Origin: Escherichia coli
GTDB taxonomy: Bacteria; Pseudomonadota; Gammaproteobacteria; Enterobacterales; Enterobacteriaceae
Assembly: GCF_011045215.1 (NCBI RefSeq)
Contig: NZ_CP049201.1
Strand: one strand, 5' to 3'
Length of the DNA: 64,000 nt
The notes beneath the pieces are model-generated. The model searched no databases, had not been told where the DNA came from, and worked only from the letters and a program-made list of their open reading frames with translations. The position numbers and the translations under genes are program-made. The number at the start of each line of letters is the position of its first letter. Positions within the stretch are counted from its first letter, which is position 1. This document shows positions 3,640 through 30,317 of this stretch, piece after piece.

Positions 3640-3971
3640 TCTATTGCACAACGAGGAAGCTAAAAGGCTTCCTTTGTTGATGCATGTCAACCACAAATCT
3701 ATCATTCCCCCGATATATGTTTATTTTATGTAAAATCAATTTATGTAAAAAGTCACATCATTGTAGTTAAAAAGGTTGAGTTAGATCGCAGAAACGGGTA
3801 CATATAGCCCCGCAAACGTGACCACGCCCGCAGATATTACTTAAATCAGAGCCATAGAGGCCACGCAGGCGAGGCATCAATCTTTACGATCTGTATAAAG
3901 ACGGATTGTTGATGATGTGTTAAAATTGATGTAAACAAATTGTGAAGTAAATGTGCTTCCGGGGAAAATAA

Positions 3972-4319: not shown

Positions 4320-5909
4320 TCAGCTCAACGCCAGTAGCTGACGCGTATACTCCTGCTGCGGTGTGGCAAACACGCGCGCGCACGGTCCTTGTTCCACTAC
4401 TTCCCCTTGTCGCAGTACGATAACCTGATGACATAACGCGCGGACAACGTGCAAATCGTGGCTGATAAACAAATAGGCCAGTTGATGCTTTTGTTGCAAT
4501 GATTTCAATAGCGTCAATATTTGCGCCTGTACCGTTTTGTCGAGTGATGATGTCGGTTCATCAAGTATGATCAGCGAGGGCTTAAGAATTAATGCCCTGG
4601 CAATCGCAATACGTTGTCGCTGACCACCAGAGAACTCCGCCGGATAACGGTGGCGTGTTTCAGGATCTAATCCCACTTCATGCATCACGGCTATCACTTG
4701 TTGTTCGCGTTGTGCGGCAGAAAGCGTCGGCTGGTGAACCCGTAAGCCTTCCTCAATAATCTGCAAAACGTTGAGTCGTGGGTTGAGCGAGGAGTTTGGA
4801 TCCTGAAATACCACCTGAATGCGATGACGAATAGGTAACAGCTGGCGGCGATTTAAATTTTGCAGTGGCTGACCGTCAAAGATGATGCTGCCCTGAGAAT
4901 TAATCAGTCGCAGCAGCGCCAGTCCCGTCGTGCTTTTCCCGGAACCGGACTCGCCCACTAAACCCAGTGTTTCACCCGCTCGTAGCGTAAAACTGATGTT
5001 TTTCACCACCACATTATGATCCACAATGCGTTTCAAAATCCCTTTGCGAATGGGGAAGGCAACCTGAAGCTGTTCAACATCCAGCAACGTTGAGGCAGGT
5101 TCTGGCAACGGCACTGGATCGCCTGACGGTTCACTGTTGAGTAGCTTTTGTGTGTAAGGATGAGTGGGTGAGGCAAATAGCGTAGCGGCGTAATTTTGCT
5201 CGACACAGCGACCGTTTTGCATTACCGCCACGCGGTGGGCCAGTTTTCTGACAATGCTGAGGTTATGAGTAATAAACAGCATGCCCATATTCAACTCGCC
5301 TTGCAGTTCGCGCAACAGCTGTAAAATCTGCGCCTGGACAGAGACGTCCAGTGCGGTGGTCGGTTCATCGGCAATTAATAATTCCGGTCGCGTTAACAGC
5401 GCCATCGCAATCATCACCCGCTGGCGTTCGCCGCCGGAGAGCTGATGCGGATAATCTGTCAGCCGTTTTGCCGCCTGGCGGATACCAACGCGATCAAGGC
5501 AGTTAAGAATTTCGCCACGAGCCGCTTCCCGACGCATCCCGCGGTGGAGTGAAAGCACTTCATAAAGCTGTTTTTCCAGGGTATGCAATGGATTTAACGA
5601 CACCATCGGCTCTTGAAAAATCATGGCGATCTTATTACCGCGTACACCGCGCAACGTTTGGTCGCTGGCATGAAGCAGCGATTCGCCATGAAAACGAATA
5701 TCGCCGGAGAGATATTCAACCGGCGGGGAAGGGAGCAGGCGTAAAATTGACAGCGCGGTAACGCTTTTGCCTGAACCTGACTCACCCACCAGCGCCAGCG
5801 TTTCGCCAGCCTCAATCTGTAGTGAAACATCATTGACTACTGTACGTACGGTTTGCTGATGGCGAAAACCCACCGACAAATCTTCAATCGCTAACAGAGT
5901 TTGCGTCAT
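4320..5909 (-). CDS. yejF: ABC transporter ATP-binding protein YejF (two fused ATPase domains) of the YejABEF peptide/microcin C importer
   Basis: ORF 4320..5957; start assigned to the internal ATG at 5909 (MTQTLLAIEDLSVGF...), giving 529 aa. Two Walker A motifs (GESGSGKS twice) and two ABC signature motifs (LSGGERQR, FSGGQRQR). Confidence 0.9.
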   Translation of the reverse strand: MTQTLLAIEDLSVGFRHQQTVRTVVNDVSLQIEAGETLALVGESGSGKSVTALSILRLLPSPPVEYLSGDIRFHGESLLHASDQTLRGVRGNKIAMIFQEPMVSLNPLHTLEKQLYEVLSLHRGMRREAARGEILNCLDRVGIRQAAKRLTDYPHQLSGGERQRVMIAMALLTRPELLIADEPTTALDVSVQAQILQLLRELQGELNMGMLFITHNLSIVRKLAHRVAVMQNGRCVEQNYAATLFASPTHPYTQKLLNSEPSGDPVPLPEPASTLLDVEQLQVAFPIRKGILKRIVDHNVVVKNISFTLRAGETLGLVGESGSGKSTTGLALLRLINSQGSIIFDGQPLQNLNRRQLLPIRHRIQVVFQDPNSSLNPRLNVLQIIEEGLRVHQPTLSAAQREQQVIAVMHEVGLDPETRHRYPAEFSGGQRQRIAIARALILKPSLIILDEPTSSLDKTVQAQILTLLKSLQQKHQLAYLFISHDLHVVRALCHQVIVLRQGEVVEQGPCARVFATPQQEYTRQLLALS

Positions 5910-19799: not shown

Positions 19800-21491
19800 A
19801 TGAAAACGCTGCTGATTATTGACGCTAATCTCGGTCAGGCACGCGCCTATATGGCGAAGACCCTGCTGGGCGCGGCGGCGCGAAAAGCAAAACTGGAAAT
19901 CATCGACAATCCGAATGACGCAGAAATGGCGATTGTTCTCGGTGATTCCATCCCGAATGACCGCGCGCTGAACGGTAAAAATGTCTGGCTGGGCGATATT
20001 TCCCGGGCAGTTGCGCACCCTGAGCTGTTCCTGAGTGAAGCCAAAGGCCATGCGAAACCTTACACTGCGCCGGTCGCTGCGACAGCACCGGTTGCCGCCA
20101 GCGGTCCGAAACGCGTAGTTGCGGTGACTGCTTGCCCGACTGGCGTAGCACACACCTTTATGGCGGCTGAAGCCATTGAAACCGAAGCGAAAAAACGTGG
20201 CTGGTGGGTGAAAGTTGAAACCCGTGGTTCTGTTGGTGCGGGTAATGCAATCACTCCCGAAGAAGTAGCCGCAGCGGATCTGGTGATTGTGGCGGCAGAT
20301 ATCGAAGTGGATCTGGCGAAATTTGCTGGTAAACCGATGTATCGTACCTCTACCGGTCTGGCGCTGAAGAAAACCGCGCAGGAACTGGATAAAGCGGTTG
20401 CTGAAGCAACGCCGTATGAACCGGCGGGCAAAGCTCAAACGGCGACCTCTGAAGGTAAGAAAGAGAGTGCAGGCGCATACCGTCACTTGCTGACGGGCGT
20501 CTCTTACATGCTGCCGATGGTCGTTGCAGGTGGTCTGTGTATCGCGCTTTCTTTTGCTTTTGGTATCGAAGCGTTTAAAGAGCCGGGTACGTTGGCAGCG
20601 GCGCTGATGCAGATTGGTGGTGGTTCAGCCTTTGCGCTGATGGTGCCGGTACTGGCAGGTTACATTGCCTTCTCCATTGCCGATCGTCCGGGTCTCACGC
20701 CGGGTCTGATTGGCGGTATGCTGGCGGTCAGCACCGGTTCTGGCTTCATTGGTGGTATTATTGCGGGCTTCCTGGCTGGTTACATTGCGAAGTTAATCAG
20801 TACGCAACTGAAACTGCCACAGAGTATGGAGGCGCTGAAACCGATCCTGATCATTCCGCTAATTTCCAGTCTGGTGGTCGGTCTGGCGATGATCTACCTG
20901 ATCGGTAAACCGGTTGCTGGCATTCTCGAAGGGTTGACTCACTGGCTGCAGACCATGGGGACTGCGAATGCGGTTCTGCTGGGGGCGATCCTCGGTGGCA
21001 TGATGTGTACTGACATGGGCGGTCCGGTAAATAAAGCAGCGTACGCATTCGGTGTGGGTCTGCTGAGTACTCAAACCTATGGCCCGATGGCGGCGATTAT
21101 GGCGGCAGGTATGGTGCCACCGCTGGCAATGGGTCTGGCAACAATGGTGGCGCGTCGCAAATTTGACAAAGCGCAGCAGGAAGGTGGCAAAGCCGCTCTG
21201 GTTCTTGGTCTGTGCTTTATTTCGGAAGGTGCAATTCCGTTTGCTGCTCGTGATCCGATGCGTGTGCTGCCGTGCTGTATCGTGGGTGGGGCGCTGACTG
21301 GCGCAATCTCAATGGCGATTGGTGCGAAACTGATGGCACCGCACGGTGGTCTGTTTGTTCTGCTGATCCCTGGCGCTATTACGCCGGTACTGGGTTACCT
21401 GGTAGCAATTATTGCCGGTACGCTGGTGGCGGGTTTGGCCTATGCCTTCCTGAAACGTCCGGAAGTGGACGCAGTAGCGAAAGCCGCGTAA
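19800..21491 (+). CDS. fruA: Fructose-specific PTS EIIB'BC component FruA
   Basis: 563-aa ORF; N-terminal IIB-like domains (VTACPTGVAHT) and C-terminal polytopic IIC domain. Confidence 0.93.
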   Translation: MKTLLIIDANLGQARAYMAKTLLGAAARKAKLEIIDNPNDAEMAIVLGDSIPNDRALNGKNVWLGDISRAVAHPELFLSEAKGHAKPYTAPVAATAPVAASGPKRVVAVTACPTGVAHTFMAAEAIETEAKKRGWWVKVETRGSVGAGNAITPEEVAAADLVIVAADIEVDLAKFAGKPMYRTSTGLALKKTAQELDKAVAEATPYEPAGKAQTATSEGKKESAGAYRHLLTGVSYMLPMVVAGGLCIALSFAFGIEAFKEPGTLAAALMQIGGGSAFALMVPVLAGYIAFSIADRPGLTPGLIGGMLAVSTGSGFIGGIIAGFLAGYIAKLISTQLKLPQSMEALKPILIIPLISSLVVGLAMIYLIGKPVAGILEGLTHWLQTMGTANAVLLGAILGGMMCTDMGGPVNKAAYAFGVGLLSTQTYGPMAAIMAAGMVPPLAMGLATMVARRKFDKAQQEGGKAALVLGLCFISEGAIPFAARDPMRVLPCCIVGGALTGAISMAIGAKLMAPHGGLFVLLIPGAITPVLGYLVAIIAGTLVAGLAYAFLKRPEVDAVAKAA

Positions 21492-21647
21492 TAAAAGGTG
21501 TGTTACAGGGCAGAAATTTACTGCCCTGTATCATTGGATGAGCGCAAAGAGAATGACCGGTTTGTGAATGTAATTTTATGAATTTAAATGGTTTTATCTT
21601 TCAGTAGAAACCTGAAACGTTCATCAAACACTAAGGTTATTTCCTCA

Positions 21648-21675
21648 AGGGCAGATTCTTTTCTGCCCTTTTTTA
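21648..21675 (+). terminator. Rho-independent terminator downstream of fruA (stem aagggcaga/tctgccctt followed by a T5 run)
   Basis: Perfect 9-bp stem, 5-nt loop, then ttttt, ~155 bp after the fruA stop. A weaker hairpin at 21505-21529 (acagggcag...ctgccctgt) lacks a U-tract. Confidence 0.6.
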
Positions 21676-21914
21676 GTGTTCATGTTCTGTGCATCCCGTC
21701 ACAAATTCCTCGCTTTTGTAATTCAGGCATTTAATCGCATTTTGTGAGCCTGCTCAAATCTGCCCGCTTTGCCTCTCTGGCGGCAATTTACTTTACGTAA
21801 AACATGCATACTATGAGCACATGTTTAAATATGAACACATGTTTAAACCGTCTTTGCAGTATCTATATCCTTGTGGATTGACAGGGTTGGTAATTTTTTA
21901 CCAGAGGACGTGCT

Positions 21915-22856
21915 ATGCGCGAAAAGGATTATGTCGTAATTATAGGTTCGGCGAATATTGATGTCGCCGGATATTCACATGAATCATTAAATTATGCGGA
22001 TTCAAATCCAGGTAAAATAAAATTTACGCCTGGTGGAGTAGGGCGAAATATTGCACAAAATCTGGCGTTGCTGGGTAACAAAGCCTGGCTACTGAGCGCA
22101 GTAGGCAGTGATTTTTATGGCCAATCGCTGCTAACGCAAACCAATCAATCTGGCGTTTATGTCGATAAATGCCTGATTATGCCGGGAGAAAATACGTCGA
22201 GCTATTTATCATTACTCGATAATACCGGTGAAATGCTGGTTGCTATAAATGACATGAATATTAGCAACGCTATTACAGCTGAATATCTCGCACAGCACCG
22301 TGAATTTATTCAGAGGGCAAAGGTCATTGTCGCGGACTGTAATATCAGTGAAGAGGCACTGGCATGGATTCTGGATAATGCCGCCAACGTACCCGTATTT
22401 GTCGATCCGGTTTCAGCGTGGAAATGTGTCAAAGTGCGCGACCGTCTAAATCAGATCCACACTCTGAAGCCAAACCGCCTTGAAGCGGAAACCCTGAGTG
22501 GGATAGCGCTGTCAGGGCGTGAAGATGTGGCAAAGGTTGCCGCCTGGTTCCATCAACATGGCCTGAACCGACTGGTATTGAGCATGGGCGGCGACGGCGT
22601 TTATTACAGTGATATCAGCGGTGAAAGTGGTTGGTCTGCGCCGATCAAAACCAATGTTATTAATGTTACCGGAGCGGGCGATGCCATGATGGCGGGACTT
22701 GCTTCGTGTTGGGTAGACGGAATGCCGTTTGCCGAATCTGTTCGTTTCGCACAGGGATGTTCGTCAATGGCGCTCTCCTGTGAATACACCAATAACCCCG
22801 ATTTATCGATTGCCAACGTTATATCGTTAGTGGAGAACGCAGAATGTCTGAATTAA
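21915..22856 (+). CDS. psuK: Pseudouridine kinase PsuK (YeiC), PfkB family
   Basis: 313-aa ORF; PfkB motifs (GGVGRNIAQNLALLG, GAGDAMMAG). Confidence 0.88.
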   Translation: MREKDYVVIIGSANIDVAGYSHESLNYADSNPGKIKFTPGGVGRNIAQNLALLGNKAWLLSAVGSDFYGQSLLTQTNQSGVYVDKCLIMPGENTSSYLSLLDNTGEMLVAINDMNISNAITAEYLAQHREFIQRAKVIVADCNISEEALAWILDNAANVPVFVDPVSAWKCVKVRDRLNQIHTLKPNRLEAETLSGIALSGREDVAKVAAWFHQHGLNRLVLSMGGDGVYYSDISGESGWSAPIKTNVINVTGAGDAMMAGLASCWVDGMPFAESVRFAQGCSSMALSCEYTNNPDLSIANVISLVENAECLN

Positions 22857-23782
22857 AAATTTCCCCTGAATTATTACAAATTTCCCCGGAAGTGCAGGAC
22901 GCTTTAAAAAACAAAAAACCGGTTGTGGCGCTGGAATCGACCATTATTTCTCACGGGATGCCGTTCCCACAAAATGCCCAGACCGCAATTGAAGTTGAAG
23001 AAACTATTCGTAAACAGGGCGCTGTACCTGCCACTATCGCCATTATTGGCGGCGTGATGAAAGTTGGTTTAAGCAAAGAAGAAATTGAATTACTGGGTCG
23101 TGAAGGGCATAACGTGACCAAAGTTAGTCGTCGCGATTTACCTTTTGTTGTTGCCGCCGGAAAAAATGGCGCAACCACTGTGGCTTCAACGATGATTATT
23201 GCGGCGCTTGCCGGAATTAAAGTATTTGCCACCGGGGGAATTGGTGGTGTGCATCGCGGGGCGGAACATACCTTCGATATTTCTGCCGATTTGCAAGAAC
23301 TGGCAAATACTAATGTCACCGTTGTTTGTGCCGGGGCGAAATCTATTCTCGATTTAGGATTAACCACTGAGTATTTAGAAACCTTCGGTGTGCCGTTAAT
23401 TGGCTATCAGACTAAAGCGCTGCCTGCGTTTTTCTGCCGTACCAGCCCGTTTGACGTCAGCATTCGTCTCGACAGCGCCAGTGAAATTGCCCGTGCAATG
23501 GCGGTGAAATGGCAAAGCGGGCTGAACGGTGGCCTCGTGGTAGCGAACCCGATCCCGGAACAGTTTGCGATGCCAGAACACACTATCAATGCGGCGATCG
23601 ATCAGGCGGTAGCTGAAGCTGAAGCGCAGGGTGTTATTGGTAAAGAAAGTACGCCATTCCTGCTGGCGCGCGTTGCTGAACTGACCGGCGGTGACAGCCT
23701 GAAATCCAACATTCAACTGGTGTTCAACAACGCCATTCTGGCGAGTGAAATTGCCAAAGAATACCAGCGTCTCGCGGGTTAA
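22844..23782 (+). CDS. psuG: Pseudouridine-5'-phosphate glycosidase PsuG (YeiN)
   Basis: 312-aa ORF overlapping the psuK 3' end by 13 nt; IndA/PsuG-family sequence. Confidence 0.88.
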   Translation: MSELKISPELLQISPEVQDALKNKKPVVALESTIISHGMPFPQNAQTAIEVEETIRKQGAVPATIAIIGGVMKVGLSKEEIELLGREGHNVTKVSRRDLPFVVAAGKNGATTVASTMIIAALAGIKVFATGGIGGVHRGAEHTFDISADLQELANTNVTVVCAGAKSILDLGLTTEYLETFGVPLIGYQTKALPAFFCRTSPFDVSIRLDSASEIARAMAVKWQSGLNGGLVVANPIPEQFAMPEHTINAAIDQAVAEAEAQGVIGKESTPFLLARVAELTGGDSLKSNIQLVFNNAILASEIAKEYQRLAG

Positions 23783-23875
23783 TTTCTGACGGGCAGAAAG
23801 CCGTCGCCCGTACTCATCAAACATACCAAAACCTGGCGCTGACGCCGGGTTTACTGGCATGAAGGGAAAATCATT

Positions 23876-25126
23876 ATGGACATAATGAGAAGTGTTGTGG
23901 GGATGGTGGTGTTACTGGCAATAGCATTTCTGTTGTCGGTAAATAAAAAGAGCATCAGTTTGCGCACGGTTGGAGCCGCACTGCTGCTGCAAATCGCTAT
24001 TGGTGGCATCATGCTCTATTTTCCGCCGGGAAAATGGGCTGTAGAACAGGCGGCATTAGGCGTTCATAAAGTGATGTCTTACAGTGATGCCGGTAGCGCC
24101 TTCATTTTTGGTTCGCTGGTCGGGCCGAAAATGGATGTCCTCTTTGACGGTGCGGGTTTTATCTTCGCCTTTCGCGTACTCCCGGCGATTATCTTCGCCA
24201 CTGCGCTCATTAGTCTGCTGTACTACATTGGCGTGATGGGGCTGCTGATTCGCATCCTTGGCAGCATTTTCCAGAAAGCCCTCAACATCAGCAAAATCGA
24301 ATCTTTTGTTGCGGTTACCACTATTTTCCTCGGGCAAAATGAGATCCCGGCGATCGTTAAACCGTTTATCGATCGCATGAATCGCAACGAGTTGTTTACC
24401 GCAATTTGTAGCGGGATGGCGTCCATTGCGGGTTCGATGATGATTGGTTATGCCGGAATGGGCGTACCAATTGACTACCTGTTGGCGGCATCGCTGATGG
24501 CGATCCCCGGCGGTATTTTGTTTGCACGTATTCTTAGTCCGGCAACCGAGCCTTCGCAGGTCACATTTGAAAATCTGTCGTTCAGTGAAACGCCGCCAAA
24601 AAGCTTTATCGAAGCGGCGGCGAGCGGTGCGATGACCGGGTTGAAAATCGCCGCCGGTGTGGCGACGGTGGTAATGGCGTTTGTCGCAATTATTGCGCTG
24701 ATTAATGGCATTATCGGCGGAATTGGCGGCTGGTTTGGTTTTACCAATGCTTCTCTGGAAAGTATTTTTGGCTATGTGCTGGCACCGCTGGCGTGGATCA
24801 TGGGTGTGGACTGGAGTGATGCCAACCTTGCGGGTAGCCTGATTGGGCAGAAACTGGCGATTAACGAATTCGTCGCTTACCTGAGTTTCTCCCCATACCT
24901 GCAAACGGGCGGTACGCTGGAAGTGAAAACCATTGCGATTATCTCCTTTGCGCTTTGTGGTTTTGCTAACTTTGGTTCTATCGGTGTTGTCGTTGGGGCA
25001 TTTTCGGCTATTTCGCCAAAACGTGCACCGGAAATCGCTCAGCTTGGTTTACGGGCGCTGGCAGCAGCAACGCTTTCCAACCTGATGAGCGCGACCATTG
25101 CCGGGTTCTTTATTGGTTTAGCTTGA
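23876..25126 (+). CDS. psuT: Nucleoside (pseudouridine) transporter PsuT (YeiM), NupC/CNT family
   Basis: 416-aa polytopic ORF; paralogous to nupX in this window (mostly identical alignment by eye). Confidence 0.88.
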   Translation: MDIMRSVVGMVVLLAIAFLLSVNKKSISLRTVGAALLLQIAIGGIMLYFPPGKWAVEQAALGVHKVMSYSDAGSAFIFGSLVGPKMDVLFDGAGFIFAFRVLPAIIFATALISLLYYIGVMGLLIRILGSIFQKALNISKIESFVAVTTIFLGQNEIPAIVKPFIDRMNRNELFTAICSGMASIAGSMMIGYAGMGVPIDYLLAASLMAIPGGILFARILSPATEPSQVTFENLSFSETPPKSFIEAAASGAMTGLKIAAGVATVVMAFVAIIALINGIIGGIGGWFGFTNASLESIFGYVLAPLAWIMGVDWSDANLAGSLIGQKLAINEFVAYLSFSPYLQTGGTLEVKTIAIISFALCGFANFGSIGVVVGAFSAISPKRAPEIAQLGLRALAAATLSNLMSATIAGFFIGLA

Positions 25127-25133
25127 GTTTCAT

Positions 25134-25172
25134 TGCCGGATGTACTCGCTTATTAAGCGTTGCATCCGGCAA
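25134..25172. terminator. Hairpin (ttgccggatg ... catccggcaa) between convergent psuT and yeiL; possible bidirectional terminator
   Basis: 10-bp inverted repeat with a 19-nt loop immediately after the psuT stop and before the yeiL stop. Confidence 0.45.
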
Positions 25173-25193
25173 TCGCGCTATTGCAAATAATTT

Positions 25194-25853
25194 TTACTGC
25201 ATCATCCCGGAGAATTTATTCTCCGGGTCCATCTCCAGCGCCAGCCCTGACAACTGCTTTCTGTTTTTAATTAGATATCCTTTCTTGCTTTTAATTAATA
25301 AACCGTCGTGAATGAATTGCGCAAGAACATATAAAAGATGTCGATAAGAAACGCCTAAATACTCTGCCGCTTGCGTATGCTTTTCGTGATAAAGATCACC
25401 TTCTTGTGAGAGTAATATAAATGCTGCCAGGCGATTCACTAACGGAAATGATTGATTCTGAGTTAAAGAAACAATATTACGATAATTTTTATGACTTAAG
25501 GTGACGCAAAGTTTTCGTAAAAATAGGGTATCGTTTAATAACAGCGGACGGTAATGTTTCATAGGGAGCGCAAGGCACCAACACTCTTCAATCGCCTGTA
25601 CTGCACGTGGTTCATGGTCTTTATCGATTAACTCAATCTCGCCAATAAAACAGGGGGCGGCAAAGAAATCGATCAGCGACACGCGACCATTAGCTAGCGT
25701 GGCGTAAAGCCTGGCGCGGCCTCGCGTCAGGTAAAACAGCCAGGACGGCTGTTGCCCTTCCTGCACAATGTAGTCACGCGCTAAAAAATGAAACAGCCGC
25801 GTATCGGCTGAAACATCCGTTAAAAAGCAATCCTTAAACGCGGATTCACTCAT
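25194..25853 (-). CDS. yeiL: Crp/Fnr-family transcriptional regulator YeiL
   Basis: ORF 25194..25892; start at the internal ATG ([11 protein letters not shown]...), giving 219 aa; cNMP-binding-like N-terminus and C-terminal HTH. Confidence 0.85.
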
Positions 25854-26021
25854 CAATTGCAGCTTAAGATCATTATTGTGGATTTCTTTCACGATGTTTA
25901 TCCGCTATGAGATTTCTCATATTTAGCATACGTACGCTGTTGTTAAGATTCAATCATCGGCCCGGTCGAATTTTCTTTGCTGTAGAAAAAATAACGCAAC
26001 TGGAAACAGAGGAAATAAACA

Positions 26022-26963
26022 ATGGAAAAGAGAAAAATTATTCTGGATTGTGATCCGGGTCATGATGATGCTATTGCAATGATGATGGCAGCGAAACATC
26101 CGGCAATAGATTTATTAGGCATCACTATTGTAGCGGGTAATCAGACGCTTGATAAAACATTAATTAATGGCCTGAATGTTTGCCAGAAACTGGAGATTAA
26201 TGTTCCGGTTTATGCGGGGATGCCGCAGCCCATTATGCGTCAACAAATCGTTGCCGATAATATTCACGGTGAAACCGGACTGGATGGCCCGGTATTCGAG
26301 CCGCTGACCCGCCAGGCAGAAAGCACTCATGCGGTGAAATACATCATTGATACCCTGATGGCAAGCGATGGCGATATCACTCTGGTGCCGGTTGGTCCGC
26401 TTTCAAATATCGCGGTGGCAATGCGTATGCAACCCGCGATCCTGCCCAAAATCCGTGAAATTGTGCTAATGGGCGGCGCTTACGGTACAGGCAACTTCAC
26501 GCCATCTGCCGAGTTCAACATCTTTGCTGACCCGGAAGCCGCACGCGTGGTGTTCACCTCTGGCGTTCCATTAGTGATGATGGGCCTCGATCTTACCAAC
26601 CAGACCGTTTGCACCCCGGACGTAATTGCTCGGATGGAAAGGGCAGGCGGCCCTGCCGGAGAGCTGTTCAGCGACATCATGAACTTCACTCTCAAAACGC
26701 AGTTCGAAAACTACGGCCTGGCTGGCGGCCCGGTGCACGACGCCACCTGCATCGGTTATCTGATTAACCCTGATGGCATTAAAACCCAGGAGATGTACGT
26801 CGAAGTGGACGTCAACAGTGGCCCTTGTTATGGGCGTACCGTCTGCGACGAGCTGGGCGTTCTTGGCAAGCCCGCTAATACCAAAGTCGGCATCACTATT
26901 GATACCGACTGGTTCTGGGGCTTAGTCGAAGAGTGCGTGCGCGGCTACATCAAAACCCATTAA
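26022..26963 (+). CDS. rihB: Pyrimidine-specific ribonucleoside hydrolase RihB (YeiK)
   Basis: 313-aa ORF with the inosine-uridine nucleoside hydrolase signature DCDPGHDDA near the N-terminus. Confidence 0.92.
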
Positions 26964-27062
26964 GTGTTGATAACAAGCCGGGCCGGTATCGCAAGATGCA
27001 GGCCTGGCTATTTCTGATGGGCAGAAAGCCGTCGCCCAATATGACATGAAGAGATAATCACT

Positions 27063-28313
27063 ATGGATGTCATGAGAAGTGTTCTGGGAATGGTGGTATT
27101 GCTGACGATTGCGTTTTTACTGTCAGTAAACAAGAAGAAGATCAGCCTGCGTACCGTTGGCGCGGCGTTAGTGTTACAGGTCGTGATTGGCGGCATTATG
27201 CTTTGGTTACCGCCAGGGCGTTGGGTCGCTGAAAAAGTCGCTTTTGGCGTGCATAAAGTGATGGCGTACAGCGACGCGGGTAGCGCATTTATCTTCGGTT
27301 CTCTGGTCGGACCGAAAATGGACACCTTATTTGATGGCGCAGGATTTATCTTTGGTTTCAGAGTATTACCGGCAATTATCTTCGTCACCGCGCTGGTGAG
27401 TATTCTCTATTACATCGGTGTGATGGGGATCTTAATTCGCATTCTCGGCGGTATCTTCCAGAAAGCATTAAATATCAGCAAGATCGAGTCATTCGTCGCG
27501 GTCACTACCATTTTCCTCGGGCAAAACGAAATTCCGGCAATCGTCAAACCCTTTATCGATCGGCTGAATCGCAATGAATTATTTACAGCGATTTGTAGTG
27601 GCATGGCCTCAATTGCCGGTTCGACAATGATTGGTTACGCCGCACTGGGCGTACCTGTGGAATATTTGCTGGCGGCATCGTTAATGGCGATCCCAGGCGG
27701 GATCTTGTTTGCCCGCCTGTTAAGCCCGGCTACGGAATCTTCGCAGGTTTCTTTTAATAACCTCTCTTTCACCGAAACACCGCCAAAAAGCATTATTGAA
27801 GCCGCCGCGACAGGGGCAATGACCGGGCTGAAAATCGCTGCGGGTGTGGCAACAGTGGTGATGGCATTTGTTGCCATCATTGCGTTAATTAACGGTATTA
27901 TCGGCGGCGTTGGCGGCTGGTTTGGTTTTGAACATGCCTCGCTGGAGTCCATTTTAGGTTATCTGCTGGCCCCACTGGCGTGGGTAATGGGTGTTGACTG
28001 GACTGATGCGAATCTTGCCGGGAGTTTGATTGGACAGAAACTGGCAATAAATGAATTTGTCGCTTATCTCAATTTCTCACCCTATCTGCAAACGGCTGGC
28101 ACTCTGGATGCTAAAACCGTGGCGATTATTTCCTTCGCGTTGTGCGGTTTCGCTAACTTTGGTTCTATCGGGGTGGTGGTGGGGGCGTTTTCTGCGGTTG
28201 CGCCACACCGTGCGCCGGAAATCGCCCAGCTTGGTTTACGCGCGCTGGCGGCGGCGACACTTTCTAACCTGATGAGTGCCACCATTGCCGGGTTCTTTAT
28301 TGGTTTAGCGTAG
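27063..28313 (+). CDS. nupX: Nucleoside transporter NupX (YeiJ), NupC/CNT family
   Basis: 416-aa ORF, collinear paralogue of psuT (MDVMRSVLGMVVLL... versus MDIMRSVVGMVVLL...). Confidence 0.88.
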   Translation: MDVMRSVLGMVVLLTIAFLLSVNKKKISLRTVGAALVLQVVIGGIMLWLPPGRWVAEKVAFGVHKVMAYSDAGSAFIFGSLVGPKMDTLFDGAGFIFGFRVLPAIIFVTALVSILYYIGVMGILIRILGGIFQKALNISKIESFVAVTTIFLGQNEIPAIVKPFIDRLNRNELFTAICSGMASIAGSTMIGYAALGVPVEYLLAASLMAIPGGILFARLLSPATESSQVSFNNLSFTETPPKSIIEAAATGAMTGLKIAAGVATVVMAFVAIIALINGIIGGVGGWFGFEHASLESILGYLLAPLAWVMGVDWTDANLAGSLIGQKLAINEFVAYLNFSPYLQTAGTLDAKTVAIISFALCGFANFGSIGVVVGAFSAVAPHRAPEIAQLGLRALAAATLSNLMSATIAGFFIGLA

Positions 28314-28327
28314 TGTGCGATTTATGA

Positions 28328-28361
28328 GCCGGATAAGATGCGGTCAAGCGTCGAATCCGGC
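28328..28361. repeat. REP (repetitive extragenic palindrome) element between nupX and yeiI
   Basis: gccggataagatgcggtcaagcgtcgaatccggc: imperfect palindrome of REP type between convergent genes. Confidence 0.6.
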
Positions 28362-28368
28362 AACATTG

Positions 28369-29457
28369 TTACACCATTGGCACTAATGAAAGCGCGTTAT
28401 CGGCAGACAGGGTAGGGTTGTTTAAGCTGCCGCTGGCGCGTGAAATTGCCGCGCAGGCCATCGCAAAACGGGCGCTGTCACGGAAATTGTTTCCTTCCAG
28501 AAAGCTATATACCAGGCCCGCCATAAAACCATCGTCAGCACCAAAACTGTCTACTGTCGTATGCGCTGGTGCGGTCAGCAAAAATTGTTCTCCATCCTTT
28601 TCGCTGCAATAAACTGACTCATCGGGCAAATAAACAAACAGTTGCTGAACACCTTGCTGATGCAACGCATTCACTGCAGCATTACGGTCAGCATCGCTGG
28701 TGATCGCCTGTCCCCATAAAATTTCCAGCTCCGGTAAAGTGGGTTTCAGGGTGTGAATATGCGCCAGCCAGTGTTTGATTTTGCCCGCTTTGAATTCTGA
28801 AACGGTATCGACAAACACCGGGATCTCACCAGCGAGGGTAAAGACCCATTCCAGCGCCTCGGCTGTCAGGTTGCAATCAGCCAGTACCACGCCCGCATGA
28901 CGAAGTAAATCGCGCGACCCGTTCAATAATTGCGGCGATAACTGTTCCAGCAGATGGGTATCGTTAATCGCCAACACGGTTTCATCGTCTCGATTGGCAA
29001 TTGCCAGATACGTCGATGTGCTTTGGCCATGTAAACGAACGCAGCCGGAGACATTCACGCCGGCGCGGCGCGTTTCTTCCAGGAGCATTTCGCCATAAAA
29101 GTCATCGCCAATCACTGAAAGCAAATGGACGTCACGGCCTAACAGCGCCAGATTGTGGGCGATGTTGCGTCCCACGCCGCCCGCTGAGCAATGAATTGTA
29201 CCGGGATGAGAAGCCGATTGCGGGTAACGGATATCCGCCATCCCGCGAATATCCATATTGATTGTCCCCACCACTACGCAGTATTCCTGCTCGGTGAGAA
29301 TGTAACCTTTGCCTTTAATCCGGCCTTTGCGCATTAAATCCATAATATGCGCCGCAACGCGCGAACGGCTGATTTGCAGCATGTCCGCAATTTCGTTCTG
29401 CTGAATCAGCGGGTTACGCCGTAAAATTGCAAGGATCTCCTTTTCCCGGTTATTCAT
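28369..29457 (-). CDS. yeiI: Putative HTH-fused PfkB-family sugar/nucleoside kinase YeiI
   Basis: 362-aa ORF; N-terminal HTH-like segment (EKEILAILRRNPLIQQNEIADMLQISRSRV), then a PfkB kinase domain sharing the GGVGRNIAHNLALLG motif with PsuK. Confidence 0.85.
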   Translation of the reverse strand: MNNREKEILAILRRNPLIQQNEIADMLQISRSRVAAHIMDLMRKGRIKGKGYILTEQEYCVVVGTINMDIRGMADIRYPQSASHPGTIHCSAGGVGRNIAHNLALLGRDVHLLSVIGDDFYGEMLLEETRRAGVNVSGCVRLHGQSTSTYLAIANRDDETVLAINDTHLLEQLSPQLLNGSRDLLRHAGVVLADCNLTAEALEWVFTLAGEIPVFVDTVSEFKAGKIKHWLAHIHTLKPTLPELEILWGQAITSDADRNAAVNALHQQGVQQLFVYLPDESVYCSEKDGEQFLLTAPAHTTVDSFGADDGFMAGLVYSFLEGNNFRDSARFAMACAAISRASGSLNNPTLSADNALSLVPMV

Positions 29458-29459
29458 CT

Positions 29460-30317
29460 TCAGGCTACCGCTTTTTCAGTTTGTTGCGCTTTCAGCCAGG
29501 CGATCTCTTCTGCCCAGATATCCGGGTTGATGGTTTCGAGGATCAGCGGAATGCCGTCGAAACGGTCGTCCTGCATGATCCAGCGGAACGCATCATGACC
29601 GATATTGCCTTCACCGAGGCTATGATGGCGGTCAACGCGGCTGCCAAAGGTGCTTTTCGCATCGTTAAGGTGCATCCCGCGCAGATACTTAAAGCCGACA
29701 GTACGGGCAAAATCCGCGAATGTTTTCTCGCATTCGGCTGGAGTACGCAAATCATACCCGGCAGCGAAAGCATGGCAGGTATCAATGCAGACGCCGACGC
29801 GGGATTTATCTTCCACGCCGTCGATAATCGCCGCGAGATGTTCGAATTTAAACCCTAAGTTACTGCCCTGACCGGCGGTGTTTTCTATCACCGCTGTCAC
29901 ACCTTGAGTTTTATCCAGCGCAATGTTGATGGATTCGGCAATACGCGCAAGGCAATCCTCTTCTGAAATCTGCATCAGATGGCTGCCAGGGTGGAAGTTG
30001 AGCAAAGAAAGCCCCAGCTGTTCGCAACGCTGCATTTCATCTATAAAGGCATCGCGCGATTTTTCCAGAGCTTCAGTGACCGGATGTCCGAGGTTAATCA
30101 GATAACTGTCGTGGGGAAGAATTTGCGCCGATGTGTAGTGATATTTTTCACAGGCGGCTTTGAATTCATCGATGGTTTGCGTCGTGAGCGGTGCGGCACG
30201 CCACTGACGTTGGTTTTTGGTGAACAAGGCAAACGCGGTTGCGTCGATTTCGGCGGCGCGAATTGCGGCATTTGCCAGACCGCCAGCAGCACTAACGTGC
30301 GCTCCAATGTATTTCAT
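29460..30317 (-). CDS. nfo: Endonuclease IV (AP endonuclease) Nfo
   Basis: 285-aa [20 protein letters not shown]...; TIM-barrel AP endonuclease family 2. Confidence 0.95.

Follow-up and report, generated by a model that had tools for sequence, protein, structure and literature searches.

Two adjacent palindromes at the psuKGT promoter of Escherichia coli as a candidate operator for the winged-helix PfkB protein YeiI

Pseudouridine is the most abundant of the modified nucleosides that RNA releases, and Escherichia coli recycles it by means of the psuKGT operon. Regulation of this operon was called poorly defined in the original prediction for this DNA, and it is indeed undescribed in the literature that we searched for psuK, yeiI and YeiL.

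In layout, the closest described system is lacP/O1. Like lacP/O1, psuK has a putative weak sigma-70 promoter with a TTTAC(T/A) −35 element, a CRP-like site about 70 bp upstream of the predicted start, and a dyad-symmetric candidate operator at or just after +1, and both a catabolite signal and the specific substrate are expected to be needed. Unlike lacP/O1, which has one 21-bp operator plus distant auxiliary sites, psuK has two adjacent 12-bp palindromes 18 bp apart. Its CRP-like site lies near −70.5/−71.5, compared with −61.5 in lac, and the regulator that we propose is not a LacI-family protein.

The DeoR and CytR systems are close in function, combining nucleoside catabolic and transport genes, CRP involvement and operators that overlap the promoter. 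However, the psuK region lacks the CytR octamer GTTGCATT and the pair of CRP sites flanking CytR sites, and it matches the DeoR 16-mer only in the outer TGTT/AACA, the inner letters being variable at psuK.

A third group of known systems consists of enzymes that act as regulators: BirA is a biotin ligase and repressor, NadR joins an HTH to NMN adenylyltransferase/ribosylnicotinamide kinase, and the ROK proteins NagC and Mlc join an HTH to a sugar-kinase fold. YeiI resembles them in having an N-terminal (winged) HTH fused to a domain for the pathway's own substrate. It differs in its putative sensor, a PfkB kinase of the ribokinase fold where the others have a ligase, an ASKHA-type kinase or a P-loop kinase, and in that the two roles are apparently split in Escherichia, Citrobacter, Salmonella and Enterobacter, where PsuK is without an HTH and YeiI carries the HTH and a GADD motif. 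Here we analyzed the psuK region in a 64,000-nucleotide stretch of the E. coli contig NZ_CP049201.1 (hereafter the window), in which all positions are numbered from the first letter.

Two palindromes upstream of psuK

The fruA gene ends at 21491 and psuK starts at 21915, leaving a spacer of 423 bp (21492-21914). Two identical 12-mers had been predicted here about 70 bp upstream of the psuK ATG, and their coordinates proved exact: CACATGTTTAAA occurs at 21818-21829 and 21836-21847, and the end of copy 2 is 70 bp from the ATG. The predicted spacing of 18 bp was also right, the dyads being 18 bp apart, but the repeat unit is longer than 12 nt. The full unit is 18 nt, TATGAGCACATGTTTAAA (21812-21829) followed head to tail by TATGAACACATGTTTAAA (21830-21847), with 17/18 positions identical.

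We found no further copy of CACATGTTTAAA with 0 mismatches in the 64-kb window, and near-exact copies were likewise confined to the psuK spacer. By chance, a 423-bp spacer would be expected to hold ~7e-4 exact 12-mers that recur within 30 bp (423 x 30 / 4^12). The 12-bp repeat upstream of psuK is genuine and far from chance.

The repeat element is the same in K-12, and the spacer of the window is 100% identical to that of strain 104 and 98% to that of K-12. In a survey with a 101-bp query, 4,218 genomes aligned over at least 80% of its length, almost all at 95% identity or more. The element was essentially invariant among these ~4,200 complete E. coli genomes; no copy-number variant was found among them, and the repeat thus does not behave as a VNTR produced by slippage.

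To describe the conserved positions, we use the following features:

21812..21847, plus strand: tandem repeat of 2 x 18 bp, holding c1, a 6-bp linker and c2
21815..21826, plus strand: c1, candidate operator site, GAGCA-CA-TGTTT, dyad at 21820.5, predicted start inside
21833..21844, plus strand: c2, candidate operator site, GAACA-CA-TGTTT, dyad at 21838.5, 18 bp from c1

We compared 36 distinct promoters of the psuK type from Escherichia species, E. albertii, Citrobacter and Buttiauxella, taken from a PsuK scan of species-representative genomes, a metagenome scan and two divergent E. coli genomes. The metagenome scan was anchored at the psuK start region, which was chosen for its independence from the repeat. 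Four blocks recur at fixed spacing: TTGTGA-N6-TCA.ATCT, TTTAC(T/A)TT, TA..AT, and two 12-mers separated by six variable bases.

Within c1, A2, C4, A5, G9, T10 and T11 are invariant, T8 is found in 35/36 promoters and the central two bases vary, giving the consensus [G/A]A[A/G]CA-YR-TGTT[T/C]. Within c2, G1, A2, A3, C4, A5, T8, G9 and T11 are invariant and the remaining positions vary (consensus GAACA-NN-TG[C/T]T[C/T]). Thus A2, C4, A5 and T8, G9, T11 are essentially invariant in both sites, around a centre that may be CA, TG, CG, TA or TT. Complementary arm cells amount to 96.5% in c1 and 77.5% in c2. The arms are nearly invariant in the 36 promoters and largely kept in an alignment of 34 rows that adds seven distant taxa, while centres, linker and leader drift.

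Judged by this conservation, the functional unit is a pair of imperfect 12-bp palindromes, RAACA-NN-TGTTY, and not a direct repeat. Invariant arms with a free dyad centre and a free linker form the pattern of a protein-binding DNA site. The predicted transcription-factor site is therefore very probable, with the difference that the recognised unit would be one palindrome used twice instead of a 12-bp direct repeat. Of the two cores named in that prediction, ACATGT is part of the palindrome, whereas TTTAAA is no conserved core, the 3' part of copy 2 being TGCTCTAA outside the main E. coli lineage. There c2 runs on as TGCTCTAATA, and so the perfect identity of the two 12-mers and TTTAAA are a homogenisation specific to the main lineage. 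A "third copy" claimed just upstream, aacatgcat(a), dissolved into a conserved AAACA half-site (21800-21804) that has no right half.

Both sites precede psuK in Escherichia, Citrobacter, Buttiauxella, Salmonella and Enterobacter. Conservation in orthologous upstream regions had been named as the check on the prediction, and with the sites kept in at least five enterobacterial genera it was not refuted. Within the window, AACANNTGTT with at most one mismatch gave 29 matches, and the sole pair 17-20 bp apart was the psuK pair. A palindrome search found no site in the yeiL-rihB, nfo-yeiI or yeiH-yeiE spacers of the window.

Putative promoter elements around c1

The promoter elements that we propose, and the operon they serve, are:

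21743..21758, plus strand: CRP-like site TGTGAgcctgcTCAAA, centre at 21750.5, 70 bp upstream of the c1 dyad
21787..21792, plus strand: putative −35 hexamer TTTACT, with the adaptive SNP at 21789; TTTAC[T/A]TT invariant in 36 promoters
21800..21804, plus strand: AAACA half-site in the −35/−10 spacer; AAACA or a one-mismatch form in most of the 36 promoters
21809..21814, plus strand: putative −10 hexamer TACTAT, 16 bp after the −35 and assigned by this spacing
21915..25126, plus strand: psuK-psuG-psuT operon, from the ORFs and the RefSeq annotation of the identical K-12 and ST131 regions

The −35 assignment rests on published evolution experiments. In mouse-gut evolution experiments of the Gordo laboratory, one change in the psuK/fruA spacer, A>C at position 2257444 of NC_000913.2, arose in most animals (PMC7518454, PMC9509342), and during long-term stationary phase A>C at psuKp arose as a single allele in 3/4 populations (PMC7858067). 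The authors assigned the site to the psuK promoter region and referred to changed psuK expression, without specifying the element hit (PMC7518454, PMC9509342, PMC7858067). A clone with the adaptive mutation grew faster whether or not pseudouridine was added (PMC9509342 Supplementary Fig. 4).

In NC_000913.3, psuK occupies 2258355-2259296 on the minus strand. The offset between NC_000913.2 and NC_000913.3 at psuK, which we take to be 1978 bp from known insertions, agrees with the published labelling of the SNP as intergenic. The SNP then lies 126 nt upstream of the psuK ATG and is the third T of AATTTACT on the sense strand, equivalent to 21789 of the window (reference base verified). T>G at 21789 turns TTTACT into TTGACT, a textbook −35 improvement, and from this recurrent change we infer that TTTACT is the −35 element.

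The −10 form TA[C/T/A][T/C]AT was found in 36/36 distinct promoters, with A2 and T6 invariant. Since TACTAT sits 16 bp downstream of the −35, the start is predicted at 21821-21822, equivalent to 2,259,389-2,259,390 on the minus strand of NC_000913.3, giving a leader of ~94 nt.

The CRP-like site matches TGTGA-N6-TCACA at 9/10 positions. In 13 orthologous promoters its half-sites, TTGTGA and TCA.ATCT, do not vary, whereas the 6-bp spacer does. With transcription starting at 21821 or 21822, the centre of the site would be at −70.5 or −71.5. The distance from this centre to the c1 dyad is 70 bp in Escherichia, Citrobacter, Buttiauxella, Salmonella and Enterobacter, 60 bp in Pasteurella, and 40 bp in Dongshaea, whose site matches TGTGA-N6-TCACA perfectly. 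These distances correspond to the canonical −71.5, −61.5 and −41.5 if the start is 1.5 bp 3' of the c1 dyad, which gives independent support for the predicted start. psuK/yeiC is not named in the main text of the CRP SELEX study or in the main-text site table of the Footprint-seq preprint.

A consensus promoter scan of the spacer returned no plus-strand promoter; it missed the proposed psuK promoter because TTTACT/TACTAT falls below the scan threshold. From these elements, we predicted that psuKGT is transcribed from a weak, CRP-assisted sigma-70 promoter. The first base of c1 directly follows the putative −10, and together with the −35 and the CRP-like site this arrangement would set c1 over the start of transcription, with c2 near +18. 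The pair had been predicted to occupy an activator or repressor position. On a promoter deduced from the published −35 SNP, the second half of that statement fits: c1 and c2 would lie in a repressor-operator position, from just past the −10 to about +24, whereas an activator site would be expected upstream of the promoter.

YeiI-family proteins and the motif in other lineages

The candidate cognate regulator is encoded in the same window:

28369..29457, minus strand: yeiI, candidate cognate regulator, with a winged HTH (residues 1-48) and a PsuK-like PfkB domain

The N-terminus of YeiI matches Pfam HTH_24 (E = 1.2e-10; 41.2 bits against a cut-off of 21.9), in addition to the PfkB domain, which is 39% identical to PsuK over 307 aa and along its whole length. 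The AlphaFold model of YeiI (pLDDT 87) superposes on PsuK crystal structures with a TM of 0.95 and an rmsd of 1.8 A, and has an extra N-terminal winged domain of three helices and a beta wing (residues 3-54). None of the solved structures matching YeiI includes an HTH. S30, N143 and K170 are the pseudouridine contacts of PsuK (PMC9061257), and our alignment showed that their equivalents are conserved in YeiI.

The YeiI proteins that coexist with PsuK carry GADD and ASHPG, whereas PsuK and the fused proteins described below carry the PfkB motifs GAGD and DSNPG. Against the PsuK model, the fused proteins score 447 bits and YeiI 259 bits. The winged HTH is nearly invariant across the family, in agreement with the unchanged operator motif.

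YeiI has been called uncharacterised (PMC9061257, 2022; PMC12506659, 2025), and its NCBIfam family, NF007416, is named just "sugar kinase". No member of the family was described as a regulator in the literature searched.

We examined the neighbourhood of the operon in related genera. In Citrobacter, Salmonella and Enterobacter, yeiI is convergent with and adjacent to psuT, and in Salmonella psuKGT and yeiI stand together in an unrelated chromosomal neighbourhood. In Buttiauxella, a partial PfkB ORF lies at the same convergent position at the edge of the locus. In E. coli, yeiI lies 3.2 kb beyond psuT, behind a yeiL-rihB-nupX insertion. The CRP/FNR-family gene yeiL follows psuT in E. coli only, and no regulator gene is conserved directly beside psuK. 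Upstream of yeiI, nfo and yeiH in the window we found no similar site, and thus no sign of yeiI autoregulation in E. coli.

YeiI homologues with 42-52% identity were found in Serratia, Yersinia, Photorhabdus, Pasteurella testudinis, Aliivibrio, Shewanella and Dongshaea. In 7/7 of these distant loci, a winged HTH-PfkB fusion is the first gene of the operon, followed by psuG and often by a nucleoside transporter, with no separate psuK. After the start codons of the Serratia and Yersinia fused genes had been corrected by 27 nt, the two-site motif was seen directly upstream of the fused-operon start codons in seven genera, the second site 18-19 bp after the first and c2 ending 4-15 bp before the start codon. 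Examples are:

Yersinia: site 1 AGACACATGTTT, linker AAAAAC, site 2 AAACAAGTGTCC
Photorhabdus: site 1 AAACGTATGTTT, linker AAAAAC, site 2 AAACAAGTGCCC
Pasteurella: site 1 AAACAAAAGTTG, linker AAAAAT, site 2 AAACAGGTGTTG
Aliivibrio: site 1 AAACAATAGTTA, linker GTTTAGT, site 2 GAACATATGTTT
Shewanella: site 1 AAACAAAAGTTT, linker GCCTTGC, site 2 AAACATATGTTT

We also built a PWM from the Escherichia, Citrobacter and Buttiauxella sites only and scanned nine independent loci of 9-17 kb. Leaving Yersinia aside, the single best match lay 15-39 bp upstream of the first start codon in 6/6 fused-operon loci. In Yersinia the spacer also holds a distal palindrome, which was the best match and left c1 and c2 in third and fourth place. 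In Salmonella the best match was c1, at −103, and in Enterobacter c1 and c2 ranked second and third. The chance of five phylogenetically separate groups each having the top match within a given 40 bp of a 9-kb locus is ~(0.0044)^5, or ~1e-12.

All nine independent YeiI-family loci (9/9) have psuG adjoining and the motif before the operon, and the motif recurs before pseudouridine operons in four gammaproteobacterial lineages beyond the enterobacterial genera.

A proposed YeiI operator and its competitors

We consider it probable, on comparative grounds, that the repeat is a two-site operator through which YeiI represses psuKGT until pseudouridine is present. A dimer of a winged-helix-PfkB protein, YeiI in the case of E. 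coli, would occupy each palindrome. Bound YeiI would cover the start (c1) and the first ~25 transcribed bases (c2, near +18) and so block initiation. YeiI is taken to be a PsuK paralogue that retains the pseudouridine-contact residues and has an altered catalytic motif, and pseudouridine, or its 5'-phosphate, in the kinase-like domain would release the DNA. Expression of psuKGT would then occur in the presence of pseudouridine together with active cAMP-CRP. At a spacing of 18 bp, about 1.7 helical turns, the two dimers would not share one face of the helix, a geometry that the YeiI model leaves unaccounted for. The distance between yeiI and psuT in E. coli, and the lack of a similar site before yeiI, also count against the model.

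Two sets of published observations were not anticipated by this model. In gut evolution, the repressors frlR, dgoR and srlR were repeatedly inactivated, while psuK was changed only by the −35 SNP, and the part of the PMC9509342 tables examined lists no yeiI mutation. A simple dedicated repressor would not be expected to behave in this way, unless gut pseudouridine already induces the operon and promoter strength is limiting, which is possible. Further, PsuG and PsuK show a strong dependence on RecA in the presence of ciprofloxacin (PMC11039860), a point that the YeiI model does not predict. The 423-bp spacer contains no LexA box; the best candidate, at 21695-21714, scored 10/20 and lies outside the conserved block. 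The LexA box has the form CTGT-N8-ACAG.

Another regulator, such as YeiL, DeoR, RutR or some other factor, might use the sites, the linkage to YeiI then reflecting a shared metabolic role only; we regard this as unlikely. YeiL could be considered, since yeiL adjoins psuT in E. coli and the AACAnnTGTT core is similar to TTAACAnnTGTTAA, the box of PrfA, another CRP/FNR-family protein. Yet yeiL is missing at the locus in Citrobacter, Buttiauxella, Salmonella, Enterobacter and 7/7 fused-operon loci, all of which retain the motif, and the yeiL-rihB spacer is without such a site. For DeoR, whose operator is TGTTAGAATTCTAACA, the inter-palindrome sequence TGTTTAAATATGAACA matches 11/16 positions, but the inner positions that define a DeoR box are the variable ones here. 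For RutR, each copy matches 10/14 positions of the box TTGACCAnnTGGTCAA, but its core GACCA is never present. DNA binding by YeiI is likewise a prediction; the YeiI-family winged HTH is nevertheless the sole DNA-binding domain that travels with the motif in all lineages.

In a wider screen of regulators, YeiL was rejected for its absence from the locus outside E. coli. LexA, PhoP (TGTTTA-N5-TGTTTA), ArcA, CpxR, TorR, NsrR and Zur, as well as CytR, DeoR, RutR, FabR, EvgA, KdgR, PuuR and an ArsR-type 12-2-12 motif, were set aside because their motifs, as generally known, misfit the spacing or the conserved positions.

We think it improbable that the repeat acts in the mRNA, through c1:c2 pairing or a 21823-21848 hairpin at the 5' end of the psuK leader that would affect stability, termination or pairing with RprA. 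The predicted leader does fold with z = −2.95 (first helix GUUUAAAUAUG/CAUGUUUAAAC), c1 and c2 can pair at 9-12/12 positions in all taxa, and RprA-psuK chimeras were recovered by RIL-seq and TRIC-seq (bioRxiv 10.1101/2025.09.11.675593). However, two copies of one palindrome are complementary by construction, so that copies of this kind can always pair and pairing potential alone proves nothing. Among 34 distinct sequences, c1:c2 pairing was 84.8% compared with 83.8% after column shuffling, and 41/500 shuffles reached the observed value. The arms show conserved identity instead of compensatory change, the commonest E. coli allele has two mid-stem mismatches, and the 21823-21848 hairpin suffers three uncompensated changes in the divergent E. 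coli allele. An Rfam scan of the spacer gave no family above its gathering score, and the leader has no U-run for termination. The hairpin reading was rejected on the covariation controls and the divergent allele. Post-transcriptional control of psuK by RprA may be layered on top of the operator.

It is very improbable that the repeat is an activator site for a second promoter further downstream, for example with TATATC at 21864-21869 as its −10. Weak −10-like hexamers do occur downstream of c2, and the faster growth of the mutant clone with and without pseudouridine (PMC9509342 Supplementary Fig. 4) could mean that the native promoter is activation-limited. Against this, the sequence past c2 is not conserved between genera, whereas the upstream −35/−10 pair is; the consensus scan found no plus-strand promoter downstream of c2; and in the fused operons a c2 placed 4-15 bp from the start codon leaves no room for one.

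A neutral, recent tandem duplication without function, which two nearly identical 18-bp units head to tail would suggest as a product of slippage, is scarcely credible and already contradicted by the conservation data: the two-site arrangement is older than the genus, the two sites are retained with different flanks in Citrobacter, Buttiauxella, Salmonella, Enterobacter and beyond, and there is no copy-number polymorphism in ~4,200 E. coli genomes.

Returning to YeiI as the probable repressor, we further propose, at about even confidence, that its family represents undescribed enzyme-derived regulators, acting as kinase and autorepressor in most Gammaproteobacteria and split after duplication in Escherichia, Citrobacter, Salmonella and Enterobacter. 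The operons of Serratia, Yersinia, Shewanella and others encode no kinase besides the fusion, which stands behind its own operator; this suggests that one protein both phosphorylates pseudouridine and regulates. In most Gammaproteobacteria, a single fused protein would thus be a pseudouridine kinase and a pseudouridine-sensing autorepressor, working through the tandem RAACA-NN-TGTTY. After duplication, PsuK would have remained the kinase and lost the HTH, while YeiI would have become the sensor-repressor with a degraded catalytic motif. GADD/ASHPG in YeiI and its lower score against the PsuK model are what such a split between kinase and regulator would give.

The psuK promoter is among the most reproducible adaptation targets in the mouse gut and in long-term starvation, and the proposed promoter, CRP-like site and conserved two-site operator would explain the effect of the recurrent SNP. 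The analysis also proposes a specific function for the orphan YeiI, still listed as an uncharacterised sugar kinase. If the proposal is true, a member of the PfkB fold would join the small set of enzyme-derived regulators, and it would become clear why gut and starvation evolution raised psuK expression through a single promoter-up base change only. A natural switch responsive to pseudouridine would also become available, which is of interest for present work on the bioproduction of this nucleoside.

Promoter, leader and upstream spacer of psuK

The recurrent adaptive SNP (NC_000913.2 2257444 A>C), which has arisen both in the gut and under starvation, falls at window position 21789. On the sense strand it converts TTTACT to TTGACT, in an inferred −35 element; the source papers reporting the SNP do not specify which promoter element is altered. 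The following features lie between fruA and psuK:

21501-21533, fruA terminator
21647-21670, stem of a second strong terminator upstream of psuK, followed by a T-run
21888-21903, stem-loop TGGTAA-TTTT-TTACCA, immediately 5' of the psuK Shine-Dalgarno
21903-21908, psuK Shine-Dalgarno AGAGGA

Comparison across taxa revealed covariation in two of the six pairs of the stem-loop. Pair 4 is U-A in the main E. coli type; B2-type E. coli and Citrobacter have C-G here, and E. albertii has U·G. At pair 6 most taxa carry A-U, Salmonella carries U-A and Buttiauxella G·U. The stem-loop looks like a genuine RNA helix of the psuK leader. Further upstream, the two terminators delimit a segment of about 110 nt (window 21534-21680), which has no Rfam match and could be a small transcript, either independent or produced by read-through.

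Fused operons of Serratia, Yersinia and Photorhabdus

Besides the two proximal sites, the fused operons of these three genera, in which a wHTH-PfkB gene precedes psuG, have a third site farther out, AACCAAACAnnTGTTTGGTT, at a distance of roughly 240-275 bp upstream:

L075 (Yersinia locus), 4749-4768, distal site AACCAAACAnnTGTTTGGTT, perfect 9-2-9
L073 (Serratia locus), ~4741-4760, distal site
L078 (Photorhabdus locus), ~3722-3741, distal site

The presence of this third site suggests DNA looping between the distal and proximal operators of the fused operons; no counterpart of the distal site was seen in E. coli. In addition, a CTTACGATCnnnCTCCCAA element is conserved in all three loci, 70-71 bp upstream of the dyad of c1, the first of the two predicted operator palindromes, which is the position of the CRP-like site in the psuK-type promoters of Escherichia and its relatives. 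Only 7/10 positions agree with the CRP consensus; the element may represent a CRP site that has diverged, or it may serve a different factor. We also noticed that the database start of the wHTH-PfkB gene in L073 and L075 (5001) is 27 nt too early, the miscalled ATG falling within c1; the true conserved N-terminus, MTSREKQIL, begins at 5028 in both.

Regulatory context and divergence from psuK to yeiI

The operator model, in which YeiI is the proposed repressor of psuKGT, explains neither of two published observations: the decrease in PsuG and PsuK protein (up to log2 −6) that several clinical E. coli strains show under ciprofloxacin when recA is mutated (PMC11039860), and the RprA-psuK RNA contacts reported by RIL-seq and TRIC-seq (bioRxiv 10.1101/2025.09.11.675593). 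Three features lie downstream of the operon:

25906-25921, perfect 7-2-7 palindrome TATGAGA-TT-TCTCATA in the yeiL-rihB divergent spacer
28369-29457, minus strand, yeiI
29460-30317, minus strand, nfo (endonuclease IV, oxidative damage)

The palindrome, whose left arm is similar to the first bases of the 18-bp psuK repeat unit (TATGAG), could be bound by YeiL or by some other regulator.

Across window 21492-29457, from psuK to yeiI, two deeply divergent haplotypes exist inside E. coli. Identity of yeiI is only about 80.6% in ~2,000 E. coli genomes, and psuK has no megablast match in ~1,200. The ST131 strain carries both a divergent psuK promoter (second palindrome c2 = GAACA..TGCTC) and a divergent yeiI, with nupX reduced to a mere remnant.

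On the minus strand, yeiI starts 2 bp past the nfo stop codon, and the arrangement is identical in Enterobacter, which makes it probable that yeiI is co-transcribed with the endonuclease IV gene.
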